Shown piece after piece: positions 1 through 18,539 of a stretch of 64,000 bases of DNA (position 1 is the first letter of the stretch; each line of letters starts with the position of its first letter). The notes below the pieces were generated by a model. It was not told the DNA's origin, ran no database searches, and was given only the letters and a program-made list of their open reading frames with translations. The position numbers and the translations under genes are program-made. The stretch comes from an uncultured Acidimicrobiaceae bacterium (GTDB taxonomy: Bacteria > Actinomycetota > Acidimicrobiia > Spongiisociales > UBA5794), in the NCBI GenBank assembly GCA_964460075.1, contig CAYWPC010000005.1, positions 2,873 through 66,872 of the forward strand, read 5' to 3'.

Positions 1-597
1 CGACTCCTGAAGGAAGCCCAAGCCGAGGCTGAGACGATCGCTCAGGAAGCAGAAGCCGCAGCGGCAGGCCGAACCGCCGGCACATCTGAGCAAGCCAACG
101 AACTGCTACGTGCTGCGACGAGGGCAGCCGCTGACAGGAGTAACGAAGCCGCCGCAACTCGACACGCAGCTTCGATCGCGAGCGCATGGATCACACGACG
201 TGCCAGGGAGAACGCTCGATCCACGATCGCCCAGGCCGAGGCACGAGCCGAGATCACCCTGCGCAATGCCACGATCGAGGCCGAGACGATCAGGGAGAAG
301 ATCTCCTCACTGCGTGCAGCAGTCGAATCGCTCCAGAGTGCAGCATCGAATCTCGCAACACATACCGCTGAGAACGCATCAGCAATCGCTATGGACGCTG
401 TTGAGGTGCTCGGAAGCGTCGATTGTGCCGCCACGGCTATCCATGGTACCGAAGCGTTCAAACCCCTCCTGAGCGTCGCCGAGGCCAGGGAGGAGCTTGA
501 GCTTGAGACCGAGAAGCCCGAACTGCTGTCCCTTCGACGACAAACGACTGGAACGCGCTTGAGCGATCGGATTAGGATCGCACGCATGTCCGGGTGA
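1..597 (+). CDS. Ala/Glu-rich coiled-coil protein; 3' fragment, 5' end lies outside the window
   Basis: Frame 1 is open from nt 1 to the TGA at 595-597. The translation is AEAE/AAAA-rich and helical. The antisense ORF 42..689 is its shadow. Confidence 0.45.
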   Translation, partial: RLLKEAQAEAETIAQEAEAAAAGRTAGTSEQANELLRAATRAAADRSNEAAATRHAASIASAWITRRARENARSTIAQAEARAEITLRNATIEAETIREKISSLRAAVESLQSAASNLATHTAENASAIAMDAVEVLGSVDCAATAIHGTEAFKPLLSVAEAREELELETEKPELLSLRRQTTGTRLSDRIRIARMSG

Positions 598-623
598 TGA
601 TCTGACGCGGGCGGAGAGATAGA

Positions 624-650
624 CACCGGTGGTTCTCCACCGGTGTTTGT
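624..650 (+). terminator. Rho-independent terminator: caccggtgg-ttct-ccaccggtg followed by TTTGT
   Basis: Perfect 9-bp stem, 4-nt loop and T-rich tail directly after the stop of the upstream ORF. Confidence 0.6.
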
Positions 651-702
651 CATTTCATAGTTCTCGACGATCGGCACTGCATGCAACACCCTCCGTGTTT
701 AG

Positions 703-2646
<1,944 letters not shown>

Positions 2647-9256: not shown

Positions 9257-9757
9257 CTAGACGATGAAGGGGACGATGCGCCACGGCACAGAGGATCGAT
9301 ATGCCGCATACCCGTCCATGTACTTGACCATCATCGCCTCCTCGTGGGCCGACTTGGCTGCGAAGAACACGAGAAAGGTAAGGGAGGACACCAGCACGAC
9401 TGGGGTGGTGTACGCAAGACCTACTCCGAGTGTGAAGAACACGATGCCCGCGTACATGGGGTGACGGACGAAACGATAAGGGCCACGATCGATCACCGCC
9501 ATGCCCTCGACAGGGAAAGGGAAGGGAGAGAACTGAGAGCCATGGAGGAGGACCGACCAGGTAGTGAGCACTGCGCCGCCAACGGCGACAAAGACGCCGG
9601 CAACCCAGATGAACATCACCCCAGGGATGTCGGACAACGAGTCGCCGACAACGACCGAGATGAGGAAGAACACGAAGAGCACGCCCTGCGTTGCGACCCA
9701 GGCGACACCCTTCTGGCCACTCACACTTGAGTCGTTCCGACTCATATTATCTGGCAT
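9257..9757 (-). CDS. Membrane methyltransferase of the isoprenylcysteine carboxyl methyltransferase / phospholipid methyltransferase family
   Basis: Multi-TM protein with the [14 protein letters not shown] signature of the ICMT/PEMT family. Confidence 0.75.
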
Positions 9758-9815
9758 GTGCTACTCTATCTTGTGGTTGTACGGTCGTAGTATCGCACCA
9801 AGGACACCTGAAACC

Positions 9816-12383
9816 ATGGACTTCAATGCATTCACACAGCGGAGCCAACAGGCTGTGCTCCACGCTCGCGAGCTTGGCGCCGCGCGCAATCACCAGTATG
9901 TACACAACGAGCACATTCTCGATGGCTTGCTCGCGCAAACCGATGGGATCATATATCCGATCTTGGCGAAGGTTGGAGCACACGTAAGCGAAGTACGAGG
10001 GTTCAATTCCGCTGCACTCGACGCGATGCCATCGGTGTATGGGGGCACCGAGGTCACTTTTGCACAGGACGCCCTTGAGGTTCTCGACGACGCTGCACGC
10101 GAAATGGAGGCACTCAAGGACAGCTATGTCTCGGTGGAGCACATCCTCATAGCGCTCGCCACGTCCGAATCTGCCACGGGGAGCAACCTGCGAGCCGTGG
10201 GAGTCTCCAAGGAGTCGATTCTCAATGCGCTCACCGAAGTGCGCGGTAGCCAGTCCGTGAGAAGCCAGAACCCAGAGGACACCTTTGCACCTCTCGACAA
10301 GTACGGGCGGGACCTCACAGAGGATGCCCGCAAGGGCAAGCTCGACCCTGTCATTGGAAGAGACGATGAGATTCGTCGCGTCATCCAGGTGCTATCTCGA
10401 CGAACCAAGAACAACCCGGTCCTGATCGGCGAGCCAGGAACCGGCAAGACCGCTATCGCAGGAGGTCTGGCGCAGCGAATCGTCGATGGAGATGTCCCGG
10501 AATCTCTCAAGAACCGCCGGCTGATCGCCCTCGATATCTCTTCGATGATCGCAGGAGCCAAGTATCGAGGGGAGTTCGAGGAACGATTGCAGGCCGTCCT
10601 CAACGAGATCAAGGCGTCAGAAGGCCGCATCATCACGTTCATAGACGAGATGCACACGATTGTGGGCGCCGGGGCGTCAGAGGGCTCGATGGATGCGTCC
10701 AACATGCTCAAGCCGATGCTCGCGCGCGGTGAGCTCCGCATGATCGGGGCTACCACGCTCGACGAGTTCCGCAAGTACGTCGAGAAGGATCCGGCACTCG
10801 AACGACGTTTTCAGCCGGTACTTGTCAATCCGCCGAGCGTCGAAGAGGCGGTTGGCATCCTCCGCGGCCTCAAGGAGCGTTACGAGGTCCACCACGGAGT
10901 GCGAATCACCGATGCAGCTCTCATCGCTGCTGCTGTGCTCTCGGATCGGTACGTCACCGGCCGTCACCTTCCAGACAAGGCGATCGATCTCATGGACGAA
11001 GCTGCTTCGAAACTACGAATCGAGATCGACTCGATGCCGGATGAGATCGACGAGCTGGAGCGTCGGAGAAGACAACTCGAGATCGAGCGTCAAGCGCTCT
11101 CGAAGGAGAGCGACACGTCCTCCCTCGAGCGGCTCAAGGTCATCGAGGAGGATCTTGCAAACTTAGGAGAAGAACTCGACGGGCTCACAGCTCACTGGCA
11201 GCTCGAGAAGGAAGCCATCGCTGCGATTCGCGCTGCCAAACAGGAGGTCGAGGACACCAGGGCAGAGACAGACATGGCTGAGCGTTCCGGTGATCTAGAG
11301 AGGGCAGCCGAGCTGCGATACAGCACGCTACCCGCGCTCGATCTTCGTTTGGCCGATGAGCAATCGAAACTCGACGAACTTCAGTCGGAAGTCAAGATGC
11401 TCAAAGAGGAAGTCGACGAGGAAGATGTCGCAGAGGTGGTGAGCCGGTGGACGGGCGTGCCCGTAGCCAAGCTACTCGAGGGCGAGATCGAGAAGCTGGT
11501 CCACCTCGAGACACACCTCCACGAGCGCGTCGTCGGCCAGAACGCTGCAGTATCGGCGATCTCGAACGCCATCAGACGGTCCCGAGCAGGGCTGTCTGAT
11601 CCTGACCGACCGATCGGGTCATTCCTGTTCCTAGGACCCACCGGGGTTGGCAAAACCGAACTCGCAAGAGCTCTCGCAGCGTTCCTCTTCGATGACGAGC
11701 AAGCCATGGTGCGCATCGACATGTCCGAATACATGGAGAGCCATTCCGTGAGCCGACTCATCGGTGCTCCCCCCGGATACGTCGGTTACGACGAGGGCGG
11801 CCAATTGACCGAAGCGGTTCGCCGTCGGCCGTACTCGGTAATTCTGCTCGACGAGGTCGAGAAGGCACACCCGGACGTCTTCAACGCACTGCTTCAAGTT
11901 CTCGACGACGGGCGCCTAACCGATGGGCAGGGTCGTACTGTCGATTTCACGAACACTGTTCTCGTGATGACGTCGAACCTTGGGTCGGAGTTCATCGACC
12001 CCGACCTGCCCGATGAGGCCATCGAGAACCGCGTACTCGATACCGTCAAGGCGTCCTTTCGCCCAGAGTTCTTGAACCGCGTCGACGACTTGATCGTGTT
12101 TCACCGGCTCACGAAGGATGACTTACGCATGATCGTTAGCATCCAATTCGATGAGTTGAGGAAGCGTCTGGCGAGTCGCAAGATCACGTTGCTACTCACC
12201 GATGAAGCGACACACTGGCTCACCGAAAACGGCTACGACCCCGTGTACGGAGCGCGCCCGCTCAAGCGTCTCCTCCAAACCGCTGTGGCCGACAAACTCG
12301 CAATGATGGTCCTTGACGGAGTCATCACCGAGGGCTCTACCGTCACCATCGGCGCCCGCGACGGTGCCCTGACGTTCACCTAA
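9816..12383 (+). CDS. clpB: ATP-dependent chaperone ClpB
   Basis: Clp N-domain, two AAA+ modules (GEPGTGKT Walker A; [15 protein letters not shown] Walker A2) and a long coiled-coil middle domain. Start moved to the ATG at 9816 ([12 protein letters not shown]). Confidence 0.95.
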
Positions 12384-12411: not shown

Positions 12412-13617
12412 CTAGGTTGCGGTGCTCGCCCGCCGCACCTCGGGAACGCCCAAGAGCACAAGCGACGCGACACCTGCCATGACCGCACCGAACACGAATG
12501 CGGCTGCTGGACCGAACACTGCCCAGATCCCTCCGAAGATCACGCTTGCGGGCAGCGCGCCGATTCCGATAGCACCGTTGTAGTACCCGAAAGCCGATCC
12601 TCTGAGATCATCAGGAGCGAGGCTTGCGACCCAAGCCCGCTCGACAGGCTCGGTGAGACCGAAGTACAGCCCGTACACGAGGAACAGGCCGATGAGTGCA
12701 GCCGTTGAAGATGCAAGTGCCATCCCGAGATATACCAGCGCGTAGAACGTCCACCCGGCCAAGACGAGCGGCTTCCTGCCTGTCCTATCCGACAATCTCC
12801 CTCCGACCAGGTTCGCGGCCATCTTGACGAGGCTGAACATAGACCACAGAATCGCGATCCACACCACCGAGACGCCCGCATCCGACAAGCGCAGAAGAAG
12901 GAACGCGTCTGCACTGTTGCCCAGCGTGAACACGATGACGGCAGCCATCAGGATCCAGTACTTCGATCCCAACTCACGGCCGCGAGAGAACACGGATCTC
13001 GATGTCACATTCTCGCTCACCGCTTGATCGGGCTCCTGGACAAATCGCACGATGACAACGATCACGATCGCTGCAGGTATCGCAGCGAGGAAGAACACCC
13101 ATCGCAGCCCCAATCCAGCCCACAAGAGGGCAGCAGCTACGAGAGGCCCCAGGACCGCTCCGAAGTGGTCGAGGCTCCGATGGACGCCGTACGCGGCGCC
13201 ACGGCTCTCTACCGGCGTCACATCCGCTATCAGGGCGTCCCTTGGGGCGGTGCGGATACCTTTGCCGACGCGATCGGTGAATCGAATCCCCAGGACGAAG
13301 GTCCATGTCGTCGCGATCGCCATCAGAGGCCTGACCGCACCAGCGATCCCGTACCCGGCAAAGACGAACGGCTTGCGACGTTTGACGCTGTCAGTCCACC
13401 ATCCTGACACAACCTTCAAGATGGCTGCCGTCGACTCGGCGATGCCTTCGATCACGCCCAGCGCGAGTGCACCGACACCGAGAACCGACGTGAGAAACAC
13501 CGGAATCAACGGATAGATCATCTCACTCGACATGTCGGTGAACATGCTCACGAATCCGAGAGCGATGACCGTTCTCGGTACGCCCTTCGTGATCTTGGCT
13601 ATCGCGCGCTGTATCAC
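12412..13617 (-). CDS. MFS transporter
   Basis: About 12 predicted TM segments. MFS-like GxLaDrxGrkp loop (LSDRTGRKP). Confidence 0.8.
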   Translation of the reverse strand: MIQRAIAKITKGVPRTVIALGFVSMFTDMSSEMIYPLIPVFLTSVLGVGALALGVIEGIAESTAAILKVVSGWWTDSVKRRKPFVFAGYGIAGAVRPLMAIATTWTFVLGIRFTDRVGKGIRTAPRDALIADVTPVESRGAAYGVHRSLDHFGAVLGPLVAAALLWAGLGLRWVFFLAAIPAAIVIVVIVRFVQEPDQAVSENVTSRSVFSRGRELGSKYWILMAAVIVFTLGNSADAFLLLRLSDAGVSVVWIAILWSMFSLVKMAANLVGGRLSDRTGRKPLVLAGWTFYALVYLGMALASSTAALIGLFLVYGLYFGLTEPVERAWVASLAPDDLRGSAFGYYNGAIGIGALPASVIFGGIWAVFGPAAAFVFGAVMAGVASLVLLGVPEVRRASTAT

Positions 13618-13861
13618 GGTTGACCCGCGCGCAGCGTCGCCCTCGGCCCCTGGTGGGCATTGGGAGTCTCGACCCAGAAGCTACGCACGAATCCGAGAGA
13701 CGACATGCCCACATCCTACGTCGGACAACAGTATGCATCCCAATGGCGACCACTCACTCGACAGTTGGCCAAGATCCCGCTGGACCTTGACAACCTACCG
13801 ATACTTTGATATCAATATAACCAAGGTACCAAACCACGAGTGATAATAAGCGATATGTGAT

Positions 13862-14218
13862 ATGGCGAGAATGGATCATCGAAGCCAGCTCCTCAAAGGT
13901 GTTTTGGACATGTGCCTCCTCGCGATGATCAGCGAGGAACCCAGCTACGGCTACGAGATGGCGGACAAACTCTCGAAACGCGGTCTCCACCTCACGAGCG
14001 AGGGATCAATCTACCCAACACTGTCGAGGATGCAGCGCTCAGGGCTCATCGAAGGCTACTTCGTCGAAGCGGACGGCTCGGGACCACCGCGTAAGTATTA
14101 CCGCATCGAGAAGAGCGGGAAACAGAGGCTCACAGAATGGACAAAAGAGTGGTTCAGCCTCAGCAATGGCGTGGACCAGGTTGTGAAGGGAGTGGCGCGT
14201 GACCGATCTCACGGCTGA
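13862..14218 (+). CDS. PadR-family transcriptional regulator
   Basis: LKGVLDMCLLAMISEEPSYGYEMADKL...GSIYPTLSRMQRSGLIEG is a canonical PadR winged helix. AT-rich promoter region upstream. Confidence 0.85.
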   Translation: MARMDHRSQLLKGVLDMCLLAMISEEPSYGYEMADKLSKRGLHLTSEGSIYPTLSRMQRSGLIEGYFVEADGSGPPRKYYRIEKSGKQRLTEWTKEWFSLSNGVDQVVKGVARDRSHG

Positions 14219-15005
14219 CCAGGTGATCGACCGTTGTCGCAGCTTCTGGCTGAGCTCCGGTGTCGAGACTGACGGAGTGCAAGACATGACGGCCGAACTC
14301 AGATCCCACCTCGAAGATACACTCGCAGCAGGAAGGGACCTCGAGACGGTCACAGGTCCAAACATCGAGGAGTTCGCCGACGAGTGGGCCTCTGCGTCAC
14401 AGGGTCCCCGGCACCAGGCGTATGCCGCTCAAGAAGATCTAGTTCCCCCACCGGTGACCAGCACCGCATCTCCGCCAGCTACGTGGGGTCTCTGGCTCGG
14501 TACGCTGGCGATCGTTGCCGGCGTTGCAGCCGTGGCCGTGTTCGCACCCAAGGACGACACGCTCGAGCAGGGGCTATGGACCGGTGTTTGGTTTGTCGCT
14601 GCCGCAGTGCTCGCCGTCGGCGAGATGCTCACTGCCGGCTTCTTCCTATTGCCGTTCGGAGCAGGAGCCATAGCTTCAGGACTGCTCACACTCACTGGCG
14701 TTGGTGTGGCCGTAGAGCTCATCACGTTCGTTGTGGTTTCGTTGCTTTCTCTGTTTCTGCTGCAGCGTTTCGCCCGCAAGGACATCCACGGCGAGCTCCT
14801 CCCCGTCGGCGCTGCACGCTACGTCGGGACCTCAGCTCTCGTGACGGAACCGGTCAACAGGCTTCGTGGCACAGGCCAGGTCAAAATGGGGACGGAGGAT
14901 TGGCGGGCGACCACGAACTCGAACGTTGAGATCCCAGAGGGCGCTGAGGTTCTCGTCACCGAGGTCAGGGGCGCAAGGCTCGTTGTAGAACAGCGCATTC
15001 GATAA
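14199..15005 (+). CDS. Membrane protein with NfeD-type C-terminal OB-fold domain; N-terminal soluble helical domain then TM helices
   Basis: GTG start with GAAGGGAG RBS, overlapping the padR 3' end by 20 bp. C-terminus GQVKMGTEDWRATT...EIPEGAEVLVTEVRGARLVV is NfeD-like. Central hydrophobic block. Confidence 0.7.
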   Translation: MTDLTADQVIDRCRSFWLSSGVETDGVQDMTAELRSHLEDTLAAGRDLETVTGPNIEEFADEWASASQGPRHQAYAAQEDLVPPPVTSTASPPATWGLWLGTLAIVAGVAAVAVFAPKDDTLEQGLWTGVWFVAAAVLAVGEMLTAGFFLLPFGAGAIASGLLTLTGVGVAVELITFVVVSLLSLFLLQRFARKDIHGELLPVGAARYVGTSALVTEPVNRLRGTGQVKMGTEDWRATTNSNVEIPEGAEVLVTEVRGARLVVEQRIR

Positions 15006-15036
15006 GTCACAGAGCACAAGAGAGAGAAAGGGCACC

Positions 15037-15996
15037 ATGCAAGCTGCATCGATCGTACTGATCCTGATTTTCGTCTTGATCATCTACGTCGCACTCGCGG
15101 TCAAGATCGTGCAACAGCACGAACAAGGGCTGACCGAACGGTTCGGACGCTACAGGACGACACTGGACCCAGGGTTCCACATGATCGTCCCGTTCATCGA
15201 AAGGGTTCGCAAAATCGACATGCGAGAACAAGTCGTTGACGTACCTCCCCAGGAGGTCATCACCAAGGACAACGTGGTCGTCACCGTCGACGCGGTGGTC
15301 TACTACCAGGCGACCGATCCGGTGAAGCTGACCTACAACGTCGCGCACTTCATCCTTGCGGCAACGAAGCTCGCCCAGACGAACCTCAGGAACGTTGTTG
15401 GCGACATGGATCTCGATGCAGCATTCACGTCAAGGGAAACCATCAACACGGAGCTCCGCACGATTCTCGATGAGGCGACGGATGTCTGGGGAACCCGTGT
15501 GGTGCGAGTCGAGATCCAACGGATCGACCCACCGATCGACGTCACCGACGCAATGCACCGCCAGATGAAGGCTGAGCGTGACAGGCGAGCTGCTGTCACC
15601 GAGGCCGAGGGCGAGAAGCGAGCAGCCATCCTCACCGCAGAGGGCGTGAAAGAGTCACGAATCCTCGACGCTCAGGGACAGGCTGAGGCCATCAAGGAAG
15701 TCGCCGACGCAGAACGGTATCAGAAGGAGACCGTTGCCGAAGGCGAGGGCCGTGCGATCGAGCGGGTGTTCTCCGCAATCCACACAGGCGACCCGACACC
15801 CGACCTCATCGCCATCAGGTATCTCGAAGCTCTTCAGGGCATTGCAGATGGCAAGGCAACGAAGATCTACCTTCCCCTGGAAACGACATCGATTCTCGCG
15901 AGCATCGGTGCAATGGGAGAGCTCTTCGCAGACTCCCAGAAGGACCACCACGAGATGGGGCACTCACACGGCGACCACCACGAAGCAACGCCGTAG
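15037..15996 (+). CDS. SPFH/band-7 (stomatin/HflK/C-like) protein with His-rich C-terminal tail
   Basis: N-terminal TM then an SPFH core (VDVPPQEVITKDNVVVTVDAVVYYQ...). The NfeD-stomatin gene pairing is well established. Confidence 0.9.
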   Translation: MQAASIVLILIFVLIIYVALAVKIVQQHEQGLTERFGRYRTTLDPGFHMIVPFIERVRKIDMREQVVDVPPQEVITKDNVVVTVDAVVYYQATDPVKLTYNVAHFILAATKLAQTNLRNVVGDMDLDAAFTSRETINTELRTILDEATDVWGTRVVRVEIQRIDPPIDVTDAMHRQMKAERDRRAAVTEAEGEKRAAILTAEGVKESRILDAQGQAEAIKEVADAERYQKETVAEGEGRAIERVFSAIHTGDPTPDLIAIRYLEALQGIADGKATKIYLPLETTSILASIGAMGELFADSQKDHHEMGHSHGDHHEATP

Positions 15997-16008
15997 ATCG
16001 GGTTCAAT

Positions 16009-16066
16009 GACAGCGACCCGAAGGGGAGACAGAGCGCTCGAAACGCTGTGTCTCCCCTTCGCTGTC
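16009..16066. terminator. Extended GC-rich hairpin between convergent genes; bidirectional terminator
   Basis: gacagcg...ggggagaca...tgtctcccc...cgctgtc nested inverted repeats. Confidence 0.5.
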
Positions 16067-16178
16067 AGATGCTTGAGACCATCCACACGGCTGCGACCCC
16101 ATCTCAACCTCGGCGATCGCACTCACTGAGACCCGCCAAGGTCGTTGCGAAGCCGAACACTTCCGATGCGGAAAGCGT

Positions 16179-17135
16179 CTAGGAGACCGTTCCCGTGTCG
16201 CCAGAGTCATCAGTGCTGTCGCTCGAGACGGCATCCCCGGCATCAACGCTCTGGCTGTCCGTTCCGCCAGCTTCCGAACTGACCGCAGCAACCGTCGCTG
16301 GCTGCGGTGAGAAGATGCTCGGATCGTCGATGAGCGTTCGCTGCTCATCCCGTTTCTGCATCCACCGGATCCAGATCACACCACCAATGAACGCTGCGAT
16401 CGAAATCCAGCCATTGCGACTCAATCCGAATAGGCGGAACGTCGTATCCGTCCGAAGCAACTCCATCCAGAACCGAATGAAGGCGTACATGACGATATAC
16501 ACGCCGAACGAAGCGCCCTTTGCAAGCTTTCCTCGTTTTTCGAACCAAAGGATTACGGGAACCAGGATCAGTGCGTTCCAGAACGACTCGTAGAAGAACG
16601 TCGGATGAAACGTCTCGAACCCTGCGAACTGTGCTGGCCTGTTGGATTGGTCGATGATGATCGCCCACGGCAGATTGGATGGTGTGCCAAACAACTCTTG
16701 GTTGAAGTAGTTACCCCATCGCCCAAATGCTTGGGCGATTGGCACACCGATCGCCACGGCATCGCCGAACGCGAACAGATCTCCGTTGCGCTTGTTGACG
16801 AGGTAGATGACAGCTAGAGCCCCAAAGAACAGTCCTCCGTATATGGCAAGGCCACCCTCCCAGATGAACAACACTGCATACGGTCTGGCGGTGAAACGGC
16901 CGGAGTGGGTGAAGACGTATCCCGCTCGTGCTCCGAGGAACCCAATCACCACAGCCCATATCGCGACCGTCTCAAAGAACTCGCCGTCCCCACCGAATCG
17001 CACGTAGCGCTTGCGAGCAACGATGATCGCGACGATGACGCCGATCGCGATGAGGATGCCGTAGAAGAAGATCGTCAACGGCCCAATCTCAATGACGTTA
17101 CGTGTCGGCGAAGGGATGGCTGCTATCAGGTTCAT
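16179..17135 (-). CDS. lgt: Prolipoprotein diacylglyceryl transferase Lgt with Ser/Asp/Thr-rich C-terminal extension
   Basis: Translation resembles the Lgt membrane core; the Lgt signature motif was not confirmed. Low-complexity acidic tail. Confidence 0.88.
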   Translation of the reverse strand: MNLIAAIPSPTRNVIEIGPLTIFFYGILIAIGVIVAIIVARKRYVRFGGDGEFFETVAIWAVVIGFLGARAGYVFTHSGRFTARPYAVLFIWEGGLAIYGGLFFGALAVIYLVNKRNGDLFAFGDAVAIGVPIAQAFGRWGNYFNQELFGTPSNLPWAIIIDQSNRPAQFAGFETFHPTFFYESFWNALILVPVILWFEKRGKLAKGASFGVYIVMYAFIRFWMELLRTDTTFRLFGLSRNGWISIAAFIGGVIWIRWMQKRDEQRTLIDDPSIFSPQPATVAAVSSEAGGTDSQSVDAGDAVSSDSTDDSGDTGTVS

Positions 17136-17381
17136 TCGTACCGTTCCTTGAGCTCCTTGAAGGCCACCCGGTCATGGGAGGCGCAGACCGCCCTTGTTCC
17201 GCCTTCGCACTTCGAGCACGATGACGACCCGCTCGGTCCTCCTTGTCGGCATCATGCTACGGCGATCAGCGATATGTGGTGCGCCCGACCCGGACCTCGT
17301 GACCCAAGTTGCAGCGGCCCCTCTAGCCTGGCATTGTGCAAACAGCCCACCGACGTCGTGGCGACTAACCCTATTGATGAG

Positions 17382-18539
17382 GTGATCGTGGAGACCAAAC
17401 AGCGCGCAGAGGACAACTTCGCCGACAAGGAAGCCGAGCTCCAGGCGCTATCGCAGTGGATGTATGACAACCCGGAACTTGCCTACGTCGAACACAACAC
17501 GTCCCGACGCATGGTCGAGACACTCCAAAGCAGCGGATTCGATGTTGAGTACCCGGCGTACGGGCTCGAGACAGCATTTGCCGCTCGCATCGGCTCCTCC
17601 GGCCCGGAGGTCATAATCTGCGCAGAGATGGACGCCCTACCCGAGGTAGGGCACGCATGCGGCCACAACATCATCGCCACGGCCGGCATCGGCGCCGGCA
17701 TCGCGCTCTCGAACCTCGCAGATCAGCTCGGGATCAGGGTCACGGTGCTCGGTACACCCGCTGAGGAGCATTTCGGCGGCAAAGTAGACCTGATCGCGGC
17801 AGGCGCATTCGAAGGTGCCGCCGCGGCGATGATGATCCATCCGTCTCCGCTCGACGTCGTCGATCCACAGTTCATTGCGGTCACCCATGTCGATGTGGAG
17901 TTCTTCGGCAAGGAGACGCATGCCTCATTCGCACCTGAGCTTGGCATCAACGCTCTCGATGCAGCCGTTCAGGCCTACGTCAACGTCTCGACCCTGCGTC
18001 AGCACTTCCTCGATTCGGATCGTGTCCACGGCGTCATCACCCACGGAGGAACGGCGCCGAACGTCATCCCTGGACATACCCGCATGTCGTGGTATGTCAG
18101 GGCCGCAACAGACGAGCGGCTCGACGAGCTCTACCCGAAAATCAAGAGCTGCTTCGAAGCGGCGGCGCTTGCAACAGGGTGCCAACTCGAGATCGTCGAG
18201 CCAGGCCACCGATACAAGGACATTCGCAACGACGGACTCATGGTCGACCTCTTCGCCGCGAACTCGAAGGCACTGGGTCGCACCATGCCTCGCTACAACG
18301 AGCTTCCACCTCGTGGCTCCGGCTCGACGGACATGGGAAACGTCTCGTACGAAGTCCCAACGATTCACCCGATGATCAGCATCAACTCGTTCCCTGCTGT
18401 GAACCACCAACGCGAGTTCGCCGCCCACACGGTGACACAGGACGGGAAGGTTGCGATCCGTGACGGCGCTCTCGCGATGGCATGGACCATCATCGACCTC
18501 GCTGAAGGCGACCGCTGGGATGAGCTGGGTACGACCTAG
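17382..18539 (+). CDS. M20D-family amidohydrolase (N-acyl-amino-acid amidohydrolase / hippurate hydrolase-like)
   Basis: Cys-Gly-His metal-binding motif (GHACGHN), dimerisation domain. Start placed at the GTG at 17382/17388; an ATG at 17274 is an alternative. Confidence 0.78.
   Translation: MIVETKQRAEDNFADKEAELQALSQWMYDNPELAYVEHNTSRRMVETLQSSGFDVEYPAYGLETAFAARIGSSGPEVIICAEMDALPEVGHACGHNIIATAGIGAGIALSNLADQLGIRVTVLGTPAEEHFGGKVDLIAAGAFEGAAAAMMIHPSPLDVVDPQFIAVTHVDVEFFGKETHASFAPELGINALDAAVQAYVNVSTLRQHFLDSDRVHGVITHGGTAPNVIPGHTRMSWYVRAATDERLDELYPKIKSCFEAAALATGCQLEIVEPGHRYKDIRNDGLMVDLFAANSKALGRTMPRYNELPPRGSGSTDMGNVSYEVPTIHPMISINSFPAVNHQREFAAHTVTQDGKVAIRDGALAMAWTIIDLAEGDRWDELGTT

Follow-up and report, generated by a model that had tools for sequence, protein, structure and literature searches.

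A PadR regulator gene overlaps the gene of a HAAS-fold NfeD protein in a three-gene operon of Acidimicrobiia ending in a QmcA-like SPFH gene

Introduction

Two described systems are closest to the locus studied here, a padR-nfeD-SPFH gene cluster in 64,000 nucleotides of DNA (the window; contig CAYWPC010000005.1 of assembly GCA_964460075.1) from an uncultured Acidimicrobiaceae bacterium. The first is the HAAS-PadR pair. The HAAS superfamily takes in the Pfam families HAAS, DUF1048, DUF1700 and DUF1129. Its core consists of three consecutive α-helices, the third of which is kinked at a conserved GxP motif, and HAAS is described as "always" encoded beside a standalone gene for a PadR-like winged helix-turn-helix protein (PMC11237479). 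Its published fusion partners are PspC, LiaI-LiaF-TM, Toastrack, VanZ and other multi-transmembrane (multi-TM) domains, and the pairs were proposed as an alternative to two-component systems, in which the HAAS-fused membrane module alters the contact with PadR and hence transcription (PMC11237479). In Listeria, the DUF1048 protein LftS is required for derepression of LftR, a PadR protein, by aurantimycin (bioRxiv 10.1101/2023.07.27.550809), and LltR, the DUF1700 membrane protein Lmo0600 and Lmo0601 are encoded by an autorepressed operon (PMC6624303).

The second system is the bacterial stomatin/NfeD complex. Escherichia coli QmcA with YbbJ builds a 26-mer cage (8z5g; Tan et al., Structure 2024). 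The structures of such complexes show closed cages, whose signals and outputs are under debate.

A first-pass annotation of the window had proposed a wiring between a PadR regulator, a stomatin and an NfeD protein with an N-terminal domain of PadR-partner type, all from co-transcribed genes, and knew of no characterised case of it. The domain matches, the predicted fold and the gene order reported here uphold this proposal. Both the similarity of the N-terminal domain to PadR-partner domains and the conserved synteny, whose joint lack had been named as grounds for giving it up, were found.

Gene organization of the locus

The three genes lie on the same strand as follows.

13862-14218, plus strand: padR, a short PadR-family winged-helix regulator of 118 residues (Pfam PadR).
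14199-15005, plus strand: haas-nfeD, the middle gene, with a GTG start and a product of 268 residues; HAAS-fold N-terminal domain plus NfeD.
15037-15996, plus strand: spfh, a QmcA-like SPFH/stomatin protein of 319 residues with an N-terminal TM helix (Pfam Band_7).

Open reading frames (ORFs) were found at the places where the three genes had been annotated. The GTG start of haas-nfeD lies exactly 20 nucleotides inside the 3' end of padR, as had been described, and spfh starts 31 nucleotides beyond haas-nfeD. The GTG start is credible because the N-terminus of the middle protein, (M/V)TDLTxDQ, is kept among homologues. The overlap between the padR stop and the haas-nfeD start implies co-transcription and possibly translational coupling. 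The three genes form one operon.

The padR product matches the Pfam PadR profile over positions 1-75 of 75 (E 2.3e-21, 76 bits versus a 27-bit cut-off). Its closest solved relatives are all PadR proteins of 100-125 residues, the best being 4esb (E 1.6e-26). It has the make-up of the short single-domain type, a winged helix-turn-helix protein of about 110 residues with one C-terminal helix. None of the three operon proteins matched a PADLOC model at E ≤ 0.001, and membership of an anti-phage defence system was rejected on this basis.

The middle protein has more than 200 full-length metagenomic homologues at 55-72% identity, annotated only as NfeD. Its parts were delimited with profile searches and a full-length AlphaFold model built on 25 homologues (mean predicted local distance difference test score, pLDDT, 79).

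14199-14408, plus strand: residues 1-70, HAAS/DUF1048-fold N-terminal domain, predicted to be cytoplasmic (profile matches, AlphaFold 2 model, bridging homologues).
14409-14480, plus strand: residues 71-94, low-complexity Pro/Ser/Thr-rich linker, poorly conserved and variable in length, with pLDDT < 50 for residues 75-93.
14481-14543, plus strand: residues 95-115, extra TM helix TM1 (a helix in the model), absent from ordinary NfeD.
14568-15005, plus strand: YbbJ-type NfeD core with three TM helices (residues 124-197) and an OB fold (Pfam NfeD, Foldseek).

The N-terminal domain of the middle protein

The extra soluble helical domain that had been noticed at the N-terminus is present. Residues 1-70 are modelled with pLDDT > 90, and 17 positions are invariant among the 25 homologues. 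When the domain was scanned alone, DUF1048 (E 8.6e-4), HAAS (E 3.8e-3) and the NCBIfam model perm_prefix_1 (E 3.9e-3) were matched, all under the curated cut-offs; the direct scores were 15-20 bits against cut-offs of 27-29.6 (Pfam HAAS PF22564 and DUF1048 PF06304). The same weak matches recur through the family, with 22 of 23 homologue N-terminal domains matching DUF1048 and 18 of 23 matching HAAS, all below threshold, and more distant members behave likewise. A profile of the domain gave seven weak matches in the PDB, which include the three DUF1048-type crystal structures 2o4t, 2o3l and 2hh6.

The link to HAAS domains proper is made by bridging proteins. P0209 and P0174, two representatives from a cluster search with the middle protein, pass the Pfam thresholds for both HAAS and DUF1048, contain two HAAS domains each, and match the profile of the operon's NfeD family at about 1e-23 to 1e-26. 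In hhalign, the N-terminal domain family aligned to a threshold-passing HAAS domain with 98.3% probability (E 1.4e-14).

The predicted structure points the same way. A separate AlphaFold 2 model of the domain (pLDDT 88.6) has 2o3l as its top PDB match (TM-score 0.79, root-mean-square deviation 1.3 Å, 64 columns), followed by 2o4t (TM-score 0.74). The model superposes on these two structures with deviations of 1.3-1.9 Å, and the next, unrelated PDB matches have TM-scores of 0.5 or less. The model helices are residues 6-20, 24-43 and 48-52, then, after a break at the invariant G53, 56-68. Three consecutive α-helices with the third kinked at a conserved glycine are thus predicted, and since the third helix breaks at G53, the pattern fits the published kink at GxP. 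Together, the profile matches, the bridging proteins and the models support the assignment of the N-terminal ~70 residues of the middle protein to the HAAS/DUF1048 fold. The resemblance to PadR-partner domains that had been proposed is therefore borne out by weak and consistent DUF1048/HAAS matches, a bridging homologue and the 2o3l fold at 1.3 Å; the search of residues 1-70 with hidden Markov models that had been suggested gave DUF1048, HAAS and perm_prefix_1, below their cut-offs.

A related architecture was seen in P0174 (403 residues), P0180 (343 residues) and P0209 (452 residues), in which two HAAS domains are each followed by a multi-TM region and NfeD is missing. Their HAAS domains are very close to that of the operon (E about 1e-23 to 1e-26), and proteins of this type may be the source of the HAAS-plus-TM add-on.

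The NfeD part and the SPFH partner

The NfeD domain (PF01957) was recognised at residues 206-264 (E 4e-12, 46.6 bits versus a 29.1-bit cut-off). In the model, four TM helices (residues 95-115, 124-145, 150-165 and 170-197) precede a C-terminal OB-fold domain (about 205-265), the five strands of which lie within residues 212-265. For the TM and OB part, Foldseek ranked YbbJ from the QmcA-YbbJ complex 8z5g first (E 1.9e-6, 145 columns), and further matches were the NfeD OB domains 3cp0, 2k5h, 3wwv, 2exd and 2k14. A Pfam scan of the middle protein found no ClpP-type protease domain, which fits the short NfeD1a/YbbJ type.

A profile search of 1.84 billion cluster representatives returned 6483 relatives of the middle protein. 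Among the 150 best matches listed, most are ordinary NfeD proteins of ~145-160 residues that align only from about profile position 120, and only about two dozen representatives are full length. The HAAS domain, linker and TM1 are therefore an add-on to a standard three-helix NfeD. One representative lacking HAAS (P0122) lies on a contig of just 976 bp, where the gene context is uninformative.

TM1 brings the number of TM helices to four, so that the HAAS domain and the OB fold can both be cytoplasmic in the topology that we infer. If the OB fold is cytoplasmic, an extra TM helix would be needed by an N-terminal domain that is cytoplasmic as well. This topology is consistent with an acidic loop, APKDDTLEQG, behind TM1 and with a basic stretch, QRFARKD, behind TM4. 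QmcA reportedly faces the cytoplasm, in which case HAAS, the OB fold and the cage would all share a compartment with PadR.

The SPFH product matches Band_7 (E 2.3e-42, 145 bits), and in phmmer its residues 7-301 align with residues 5-299 of E. coli QmcA (8z5g_A; E 5.2e-73). By these alignments it is a full-length QmcA-like (SPFH1a) stomatin relative, a type with an N-terminal TM helix, an SPFH (Band_7) domain and a coiled-coil region, and it may form a cage. The protein ends in ...HHEMGHSHGDHHEATP, a His-rich tail encoded at about 15943-15987, from which metal binding had been suggested. The tail is indeed present in the sequence. At least three His in the last 22 residues were found in none of the 69 complete SPFH orthologues (0/69), and the idea of a conserved metal site was rejected. 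The His-rich stretch is particular to this lineage, within a C-terminal end that is variable and of low complexity, and a conserved role in metal binding is unlikely.

Conservation and linkage of the three genes

The relatives scan used one genome per species and gave 412 relatives, of which the best 80 loci were compared. They show 34-72% identity and come nearly all from metagenome-assembled genomes (MAGs) of Acidimicrobiia, with a few that are probably mis-binned. padR lies directly upstream on the same strand in 76 of the 80 loci, which are all of the testable loci that bear HAAS (76/76). SPFH lies directly downstream in 79 loci, and the 80th ends at a contig border. The stop of padR overlaps the next start by 4, 8, 14 or 20 nucleotides in 75 of the 76 loci, or in 76 of 77 cases when the window is included, which supports the co-transcription that had been concluded from the single overlap. 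A census of padR-nfeD-SPFH neighbourhoods had been proposed as a check on the module, and it found the synteny in every testable locus, nearly all of them from Acidimicrobiia. These results indicate that the three-gene operon has been maintained throughout the class Acidimicrobiia.

Four loci lack padR, and they are of two kinds. In L046 the contig ends 37 nucleotides upstream of haas-nfeD, and L065 was rejected as a HAAS-bearing locus without padR, since its assembly has a gap of 100 N immediately before the gene. In L029 and L052, NfeD begins just before TM1 and there is neither a HAAS domain nor padR, while clpB upstream and spfh-lgt downstream are retained; HAAS, TM1, padR and the promoter motifs are all lost together. 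An N-terminal coverage hinted by tblastn in L052 was rejected, as the ORF extension overlaps the upstream gene and carries no ELxxHL or FAxEWA motif. Thus padR and HAAS go together, being both present in 76 of 76 testable loci and both absent in the two HAAS-less loci.

In the place of padR, between clpB and nfeD, the two HAAS-less loci encode a predicted secreted protein of ~300 residues (3954-4862 in L029, 4090-5034 in L052). It has an N-terminal signal-like sequence and a Thr/Pro-rich linker and is unrelated to PadR.

The operon was also seen in seven MAGs labelled Acidobacteria, Kiloniellales, Armatimonadetes or Gemmatimonadales (L004, L005, L011, L031, L034, L044 and L069). These mislabelled-looking contigs often share the clpB/lgt neighbours of the Acidimicrobiia-type operon, and they probably reflect binning or labelling errors, not horizontal transfer.

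Promoter and putative operator

The 95 nucleotides upstream of padR were aligned for the 28 closest loci. The aligned promoters share cTTGACa, 14 nucleotides, TGATATC, ~9 nucleotides and cAaGgTATc, then GATA near the start codon, and the sequence between these blocks is variable.

13787-13792, plus strand: -35-like hexamer TTGACA, conserved as cTTGACa in the 28 closest promoters.
13802-13828, plus strand: putative PadR operator, TGATATC plus CAAGGTA, conserved columns between the -35 hexamer and the ATG.

TGATATC (13807-13813) is part of a perfect 10-bp palindrome, TTGATATCAA (13806-13815). It also coincides in part with a candidate extended -10 element, TG-n-TATCAA, at a spacer of 17 nucleotides. 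An imperfect inverted repeat, TACTTTG (13802-13808) with CAAGGTA (13822-13828), encloses the predicted transcription start, which would fall at about CAAGGTA. Of 75 promoters, 35 contain the 7-mer CAAGGTA/TACCTTG and 30 contain TGATATC, versus about 0.8 in shuffles; the kinship of the loci inflates these counts. More distant subclades repeat the half-site, either in palindromes or at a spacing of 17 nucleotides. The composite TGATATC-N6-12-CAAGGTA occurs once in the window where 0 are expected, and L029, whose nfeD has neither HAAS nor padR, lacks it upstream of that gene. The conservation and position of these elements suggest that PadR binds them. Since they cover the -10 region and the predicted start of transcription, RNA polymerase would be blocked by a repressor sitting on them.

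A sigma-70 consensus scan found no promoter at the operon; the final base of the -10 candidate is not T, so this promoter escaped it. The first-pass annotation had pointed to repeated GTGATA/ATGTGATAT motifs as sites for PadR. The strings are there (13840-13845; 13855-13863), and the rest of the claim falls: a repeat search was empty, and the strings align to the variable 5' untranslated or ribosome-binding region and are not conserved in related promoters, so they were rejected as the operator.

Short tandem repeats were observed about 60-100 nucleotides upstream of padR, just 5' of the -35 hexamer, in L011, L016 and L051, which belong to one subclade. They consist of GACGTC-containing units such as TCTGACGTCGGACGTC; L022 has CCTCTGT units, and the window has none.

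Downstream of the operon, a strong hairpin was found by RNA folding.

16008-16066, no strand assigned: hairpin between the SPFH stop and the convergent lgt.

The region 15990-16090 folds with -51.6 kcal/mol (z = -6.3), and none of 200 shuffles folds as well. The hairpin is a probable terminator, possibly acting bidirectionally. It was not listed by a terminator consensus scan, because it has no U-tract.

Neighbouring genes

Upstream of the operon, clpB is found in 36 of the 80 loci within the fetched flanks. In the window, the ClpB ORF (9564-12383, plus strand, 939 residues, GTG start) is over-extended at its 5' end, and the real start would be about 75 codons downstream, as homologues and the L029 ORF (866 residues) suggest a later start. 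On the other side, the ORF at 16905-18539 (plus strand, 544 residues) is probably over-extended, and its 5' part overlaps lgt on the opposite strand. Conservation among related loci is limited to its C-terminal ~380 residues, which resemble an M20-type amidohydrolase/peptidase.

Discussion

We consider it fairly probable that the locus represents a HAAS-PadR two-protein pair grafted onto a stomatin-NfeD complex of QmcA/YbbJ type, in which NfeD-SPFH is the membrane module and which probably autoregulates its operon. By analogy with the Listeria and other HAAS-PadR pairs, PadR would repress padR-haas/nfeD-spfh, and the state of NfeD-SPFH would act on it through HAAS. A PadR dimer would bind TGATATC/CAAGGTA, covering the -10 region together with the transcription start, and thereby repress its own operon. 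The membrane protein would carry a cytoplasmic HAAS domain on a flexible linker and an extra TM helix ahead of an ordinary NfeD, whose OB fold would dock on the SPFH cage, while the HAAS domain would contact PadR, a step for which the precedent is solely genetic, namely the need for LftS in LftR derepression. The signal may be membrane stress, client load or the share of NfeD that is assembled in cages; any such change in the NfeD-SPFH state would alter the HAAS-PadR contact. The switch could work in either direction, with PadR held at the membrane or freed from it and the operon switched on or off in consequence. In the simplest case, SPFH cage levels would be set by a loop that works by feedback or is induced by stress.

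Several points weigh against this interpretation. The operon is known from uncultured MAGs and as sequence alone. Every family member tested scores below the curated Pfam HAAS and DUF1048 cut-offs, and the canonical GxP motif is GxD/N in the N-terminal domain, with D55 in 90% or more of the alignment. The wider region is syntenic too, with clpB upstream and lgt and the M20 peptidase gene downstream. Part of the shared gene order is therefore due to vertical descent inside a single class, and the loci cannot be counted as independent cases. padR and HAAS were probably lost together only once, since both MAGs come from one study. The spacing and orientation of the promoter motifs vary between subclades, so the exact operator is not fixed. 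Finally, the HAAS domain could lie inside or outside the SPFH cage.

The low domain scores and the shared gene order also fit another explanation, that PadR is an ordinary autorepressor which senses a ligand such as a lipophilic or phenolic compound, and that the N-terminal domain of NfeD is a structural or oligomerisation add-on without contact to PadR. Many short PadR proteins, LmrR and PadR among them, bind small molecules directly, the N-terminal domain scores under the Pfam cut-offs, and the gene order could stem from vertical inheritance. Nevertheless, the domain has the DUF1048/HAAS fold, whose family is said to occur always with PadR, padR and the domain are jointly present in 76 of 76 loci and jointly absent in 2 of 2, and a DUF1048 protein, LftS, is needed for LftR derepression. 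We therefore regard this explanation as unlikely.

The signal might also run in reverse, with PadR, as a cytoplasmic sensor or adaptor, regulating the assembly or activity of the NfeD-SPFH cage through HAAS, and with transcription control as a secondary role. The comparative data show linkage, not direction, and one HAAS per NfeD would present many PadR sites on each cage if the stoichiometry is like that of the 26-mer QmcA complex. Because PadR retains a complete winged-helix DNA-binding domain, the footprint at -10/+1 is conserved in the promoter, and the known PadR-HAAS pairs act on transcription, a reversed signal appears less probable still. That PadR mainly regulates the divergent MFS-type transporter gene (12412-13617, minus strand) across the 244-bp intergenic region, like the common PadR-efflux pairs LadR-MdrL and LftR-LieAB, with nfeD-spfh adjacent by chance, is very improbable, as an MFS homologue adjoins padR in only 1 of 80 related loci (L001) whereas nfeD-spfh always follows padR with overlapping codons, and the conserved motifs lie 34-60 nucleotides from the padR ATG versus about 190 from the MFS start; the transporter gene is probably outside the padR-haas/nfeD-spfh module.

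The interpretation as a HAAS-PadR pair on an NfeD-SPFH complex has a parallel in another phylum. The representative search also found P0227 (~284 residues), which joins an XRE-type helix-turn-helix domain (HTH_3) to a TM region and the OB domain of NfeD in one chain. At the one locus examined (L082), such an HTH-NfeD gene (38-892, plus strand) is followed after 3 nucleotides by an SPFH gene (895-1224, plus strand). The family is large (P0227, P0270-P0388), with HTH_3 and NfeD in all 120 clusters among the matches listed. Its members apparently come from gut Clostridia, one named Candidatus Enterenecus, and the sources call them "NfeD family protein". From its domains, the XRE-HTH-NfeD protein looks like a membrane-tethered transcription factor built on NfeD. 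Like the HAAS-NfeD operon, it couples a DNA-binding domain to NfeD, with SPFH next to it in L082. Unlike that operon, it does so within one protein, not with a free PadR that docks on HAAS, and with another HTH family. A description of XRE-HTH-TM-NfeD fusions was not found in the literature searched.

Coupling of a DNA-binding domain to NfeD thus arose on at least two occasions and in different ways, which strengthens the idea that NfeD feeds into transcription. We propose, tentatively and with more doubt than for the operon itself, that NfeD is a signal-output subunit of SPFH cages, that the state of the cage is read transcriptionally, and that this arrangement evolved at least twice, as HAAS-PadR in Acidimicrobiia and as a fused XRE HTH in Clostridia. 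If so, SPFH-NfeD complexes, whose bacterial function is debated, would gain a defined regulatory output, and the operon would offer a natural reporter for whatever SPFH cages sense. With a repressor wired to NfeD, promoter activity should track the state of the complex, and a PadR-HAAS contact is predicted. The HAAS-PadR system, which is largely computational so far, would be extended beyond the Psp/Lia envelope-stress domains. There is also an annotation gap: because the HAAS domain stays under the Pfam thresholds throughout the family, databases list these proteins simply as "NfeD family protein" and their architecture is hidden.

The short PadR, HAAS/DUF1048, YbbJ-type NfeD and QmcA-type SPFH families are all known, and the HAAS-PadR principle is published (PMC11237479). 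The HAAS-NfeD fusion, and a dedicated transcription factor on an SPFH-NfeD operon, appear to be undescribed in the literature searched. NfeD is not mentioned in the text of the HAAS-PadR paper or in a supplementary file (PMC11237479), no NfeD with a linked regulator is reported where the operons of prokaryotic SPFH proteins were surveyed (PMC2636767), and in a full-text literature search for PadR with NfeD, SPFH, stomatin or flotillin PadR was absent from the 12 papers ranked highest.

Compared with the HAAS-PadR systems (Ravi et al., mSystems 2024, PMC11237479; LftR-LftS; LltR-Lmo0600-Lmo0601), the operon likewise has a standalone short padR directly upstream that is co-transcribed, its HAAS domain is likewise N-terminal, predicted to be cytoplasmic and followed by TM segments, and its promoter footprint suggests autoregulation. 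It differs in that HAAS is fused to NfeD, with its TM bundle and OB fold, in that an SPFH partner gene is included, and in having GxD/N, not GxP. Compared with E. coli QmcA-YbbJ (SPFH1a-NfeD1a, 8z5g), Pyrococcus PH1511/PH1510 and Bacillus YuaF-FloT, it likewise has nfeD followed by a gene for a stomatin-like SPFH protein. YbbJ-type proteins, at about 150 residues, lack a cytoplasmic N-terminal domain, whereas the protein here is longer by about 115 residues, made up of HAAS, linker and extra TM helix, and, unlike in QmcA-YbbJ, a dedicated transcription factor gene overlaps the nfeD start.

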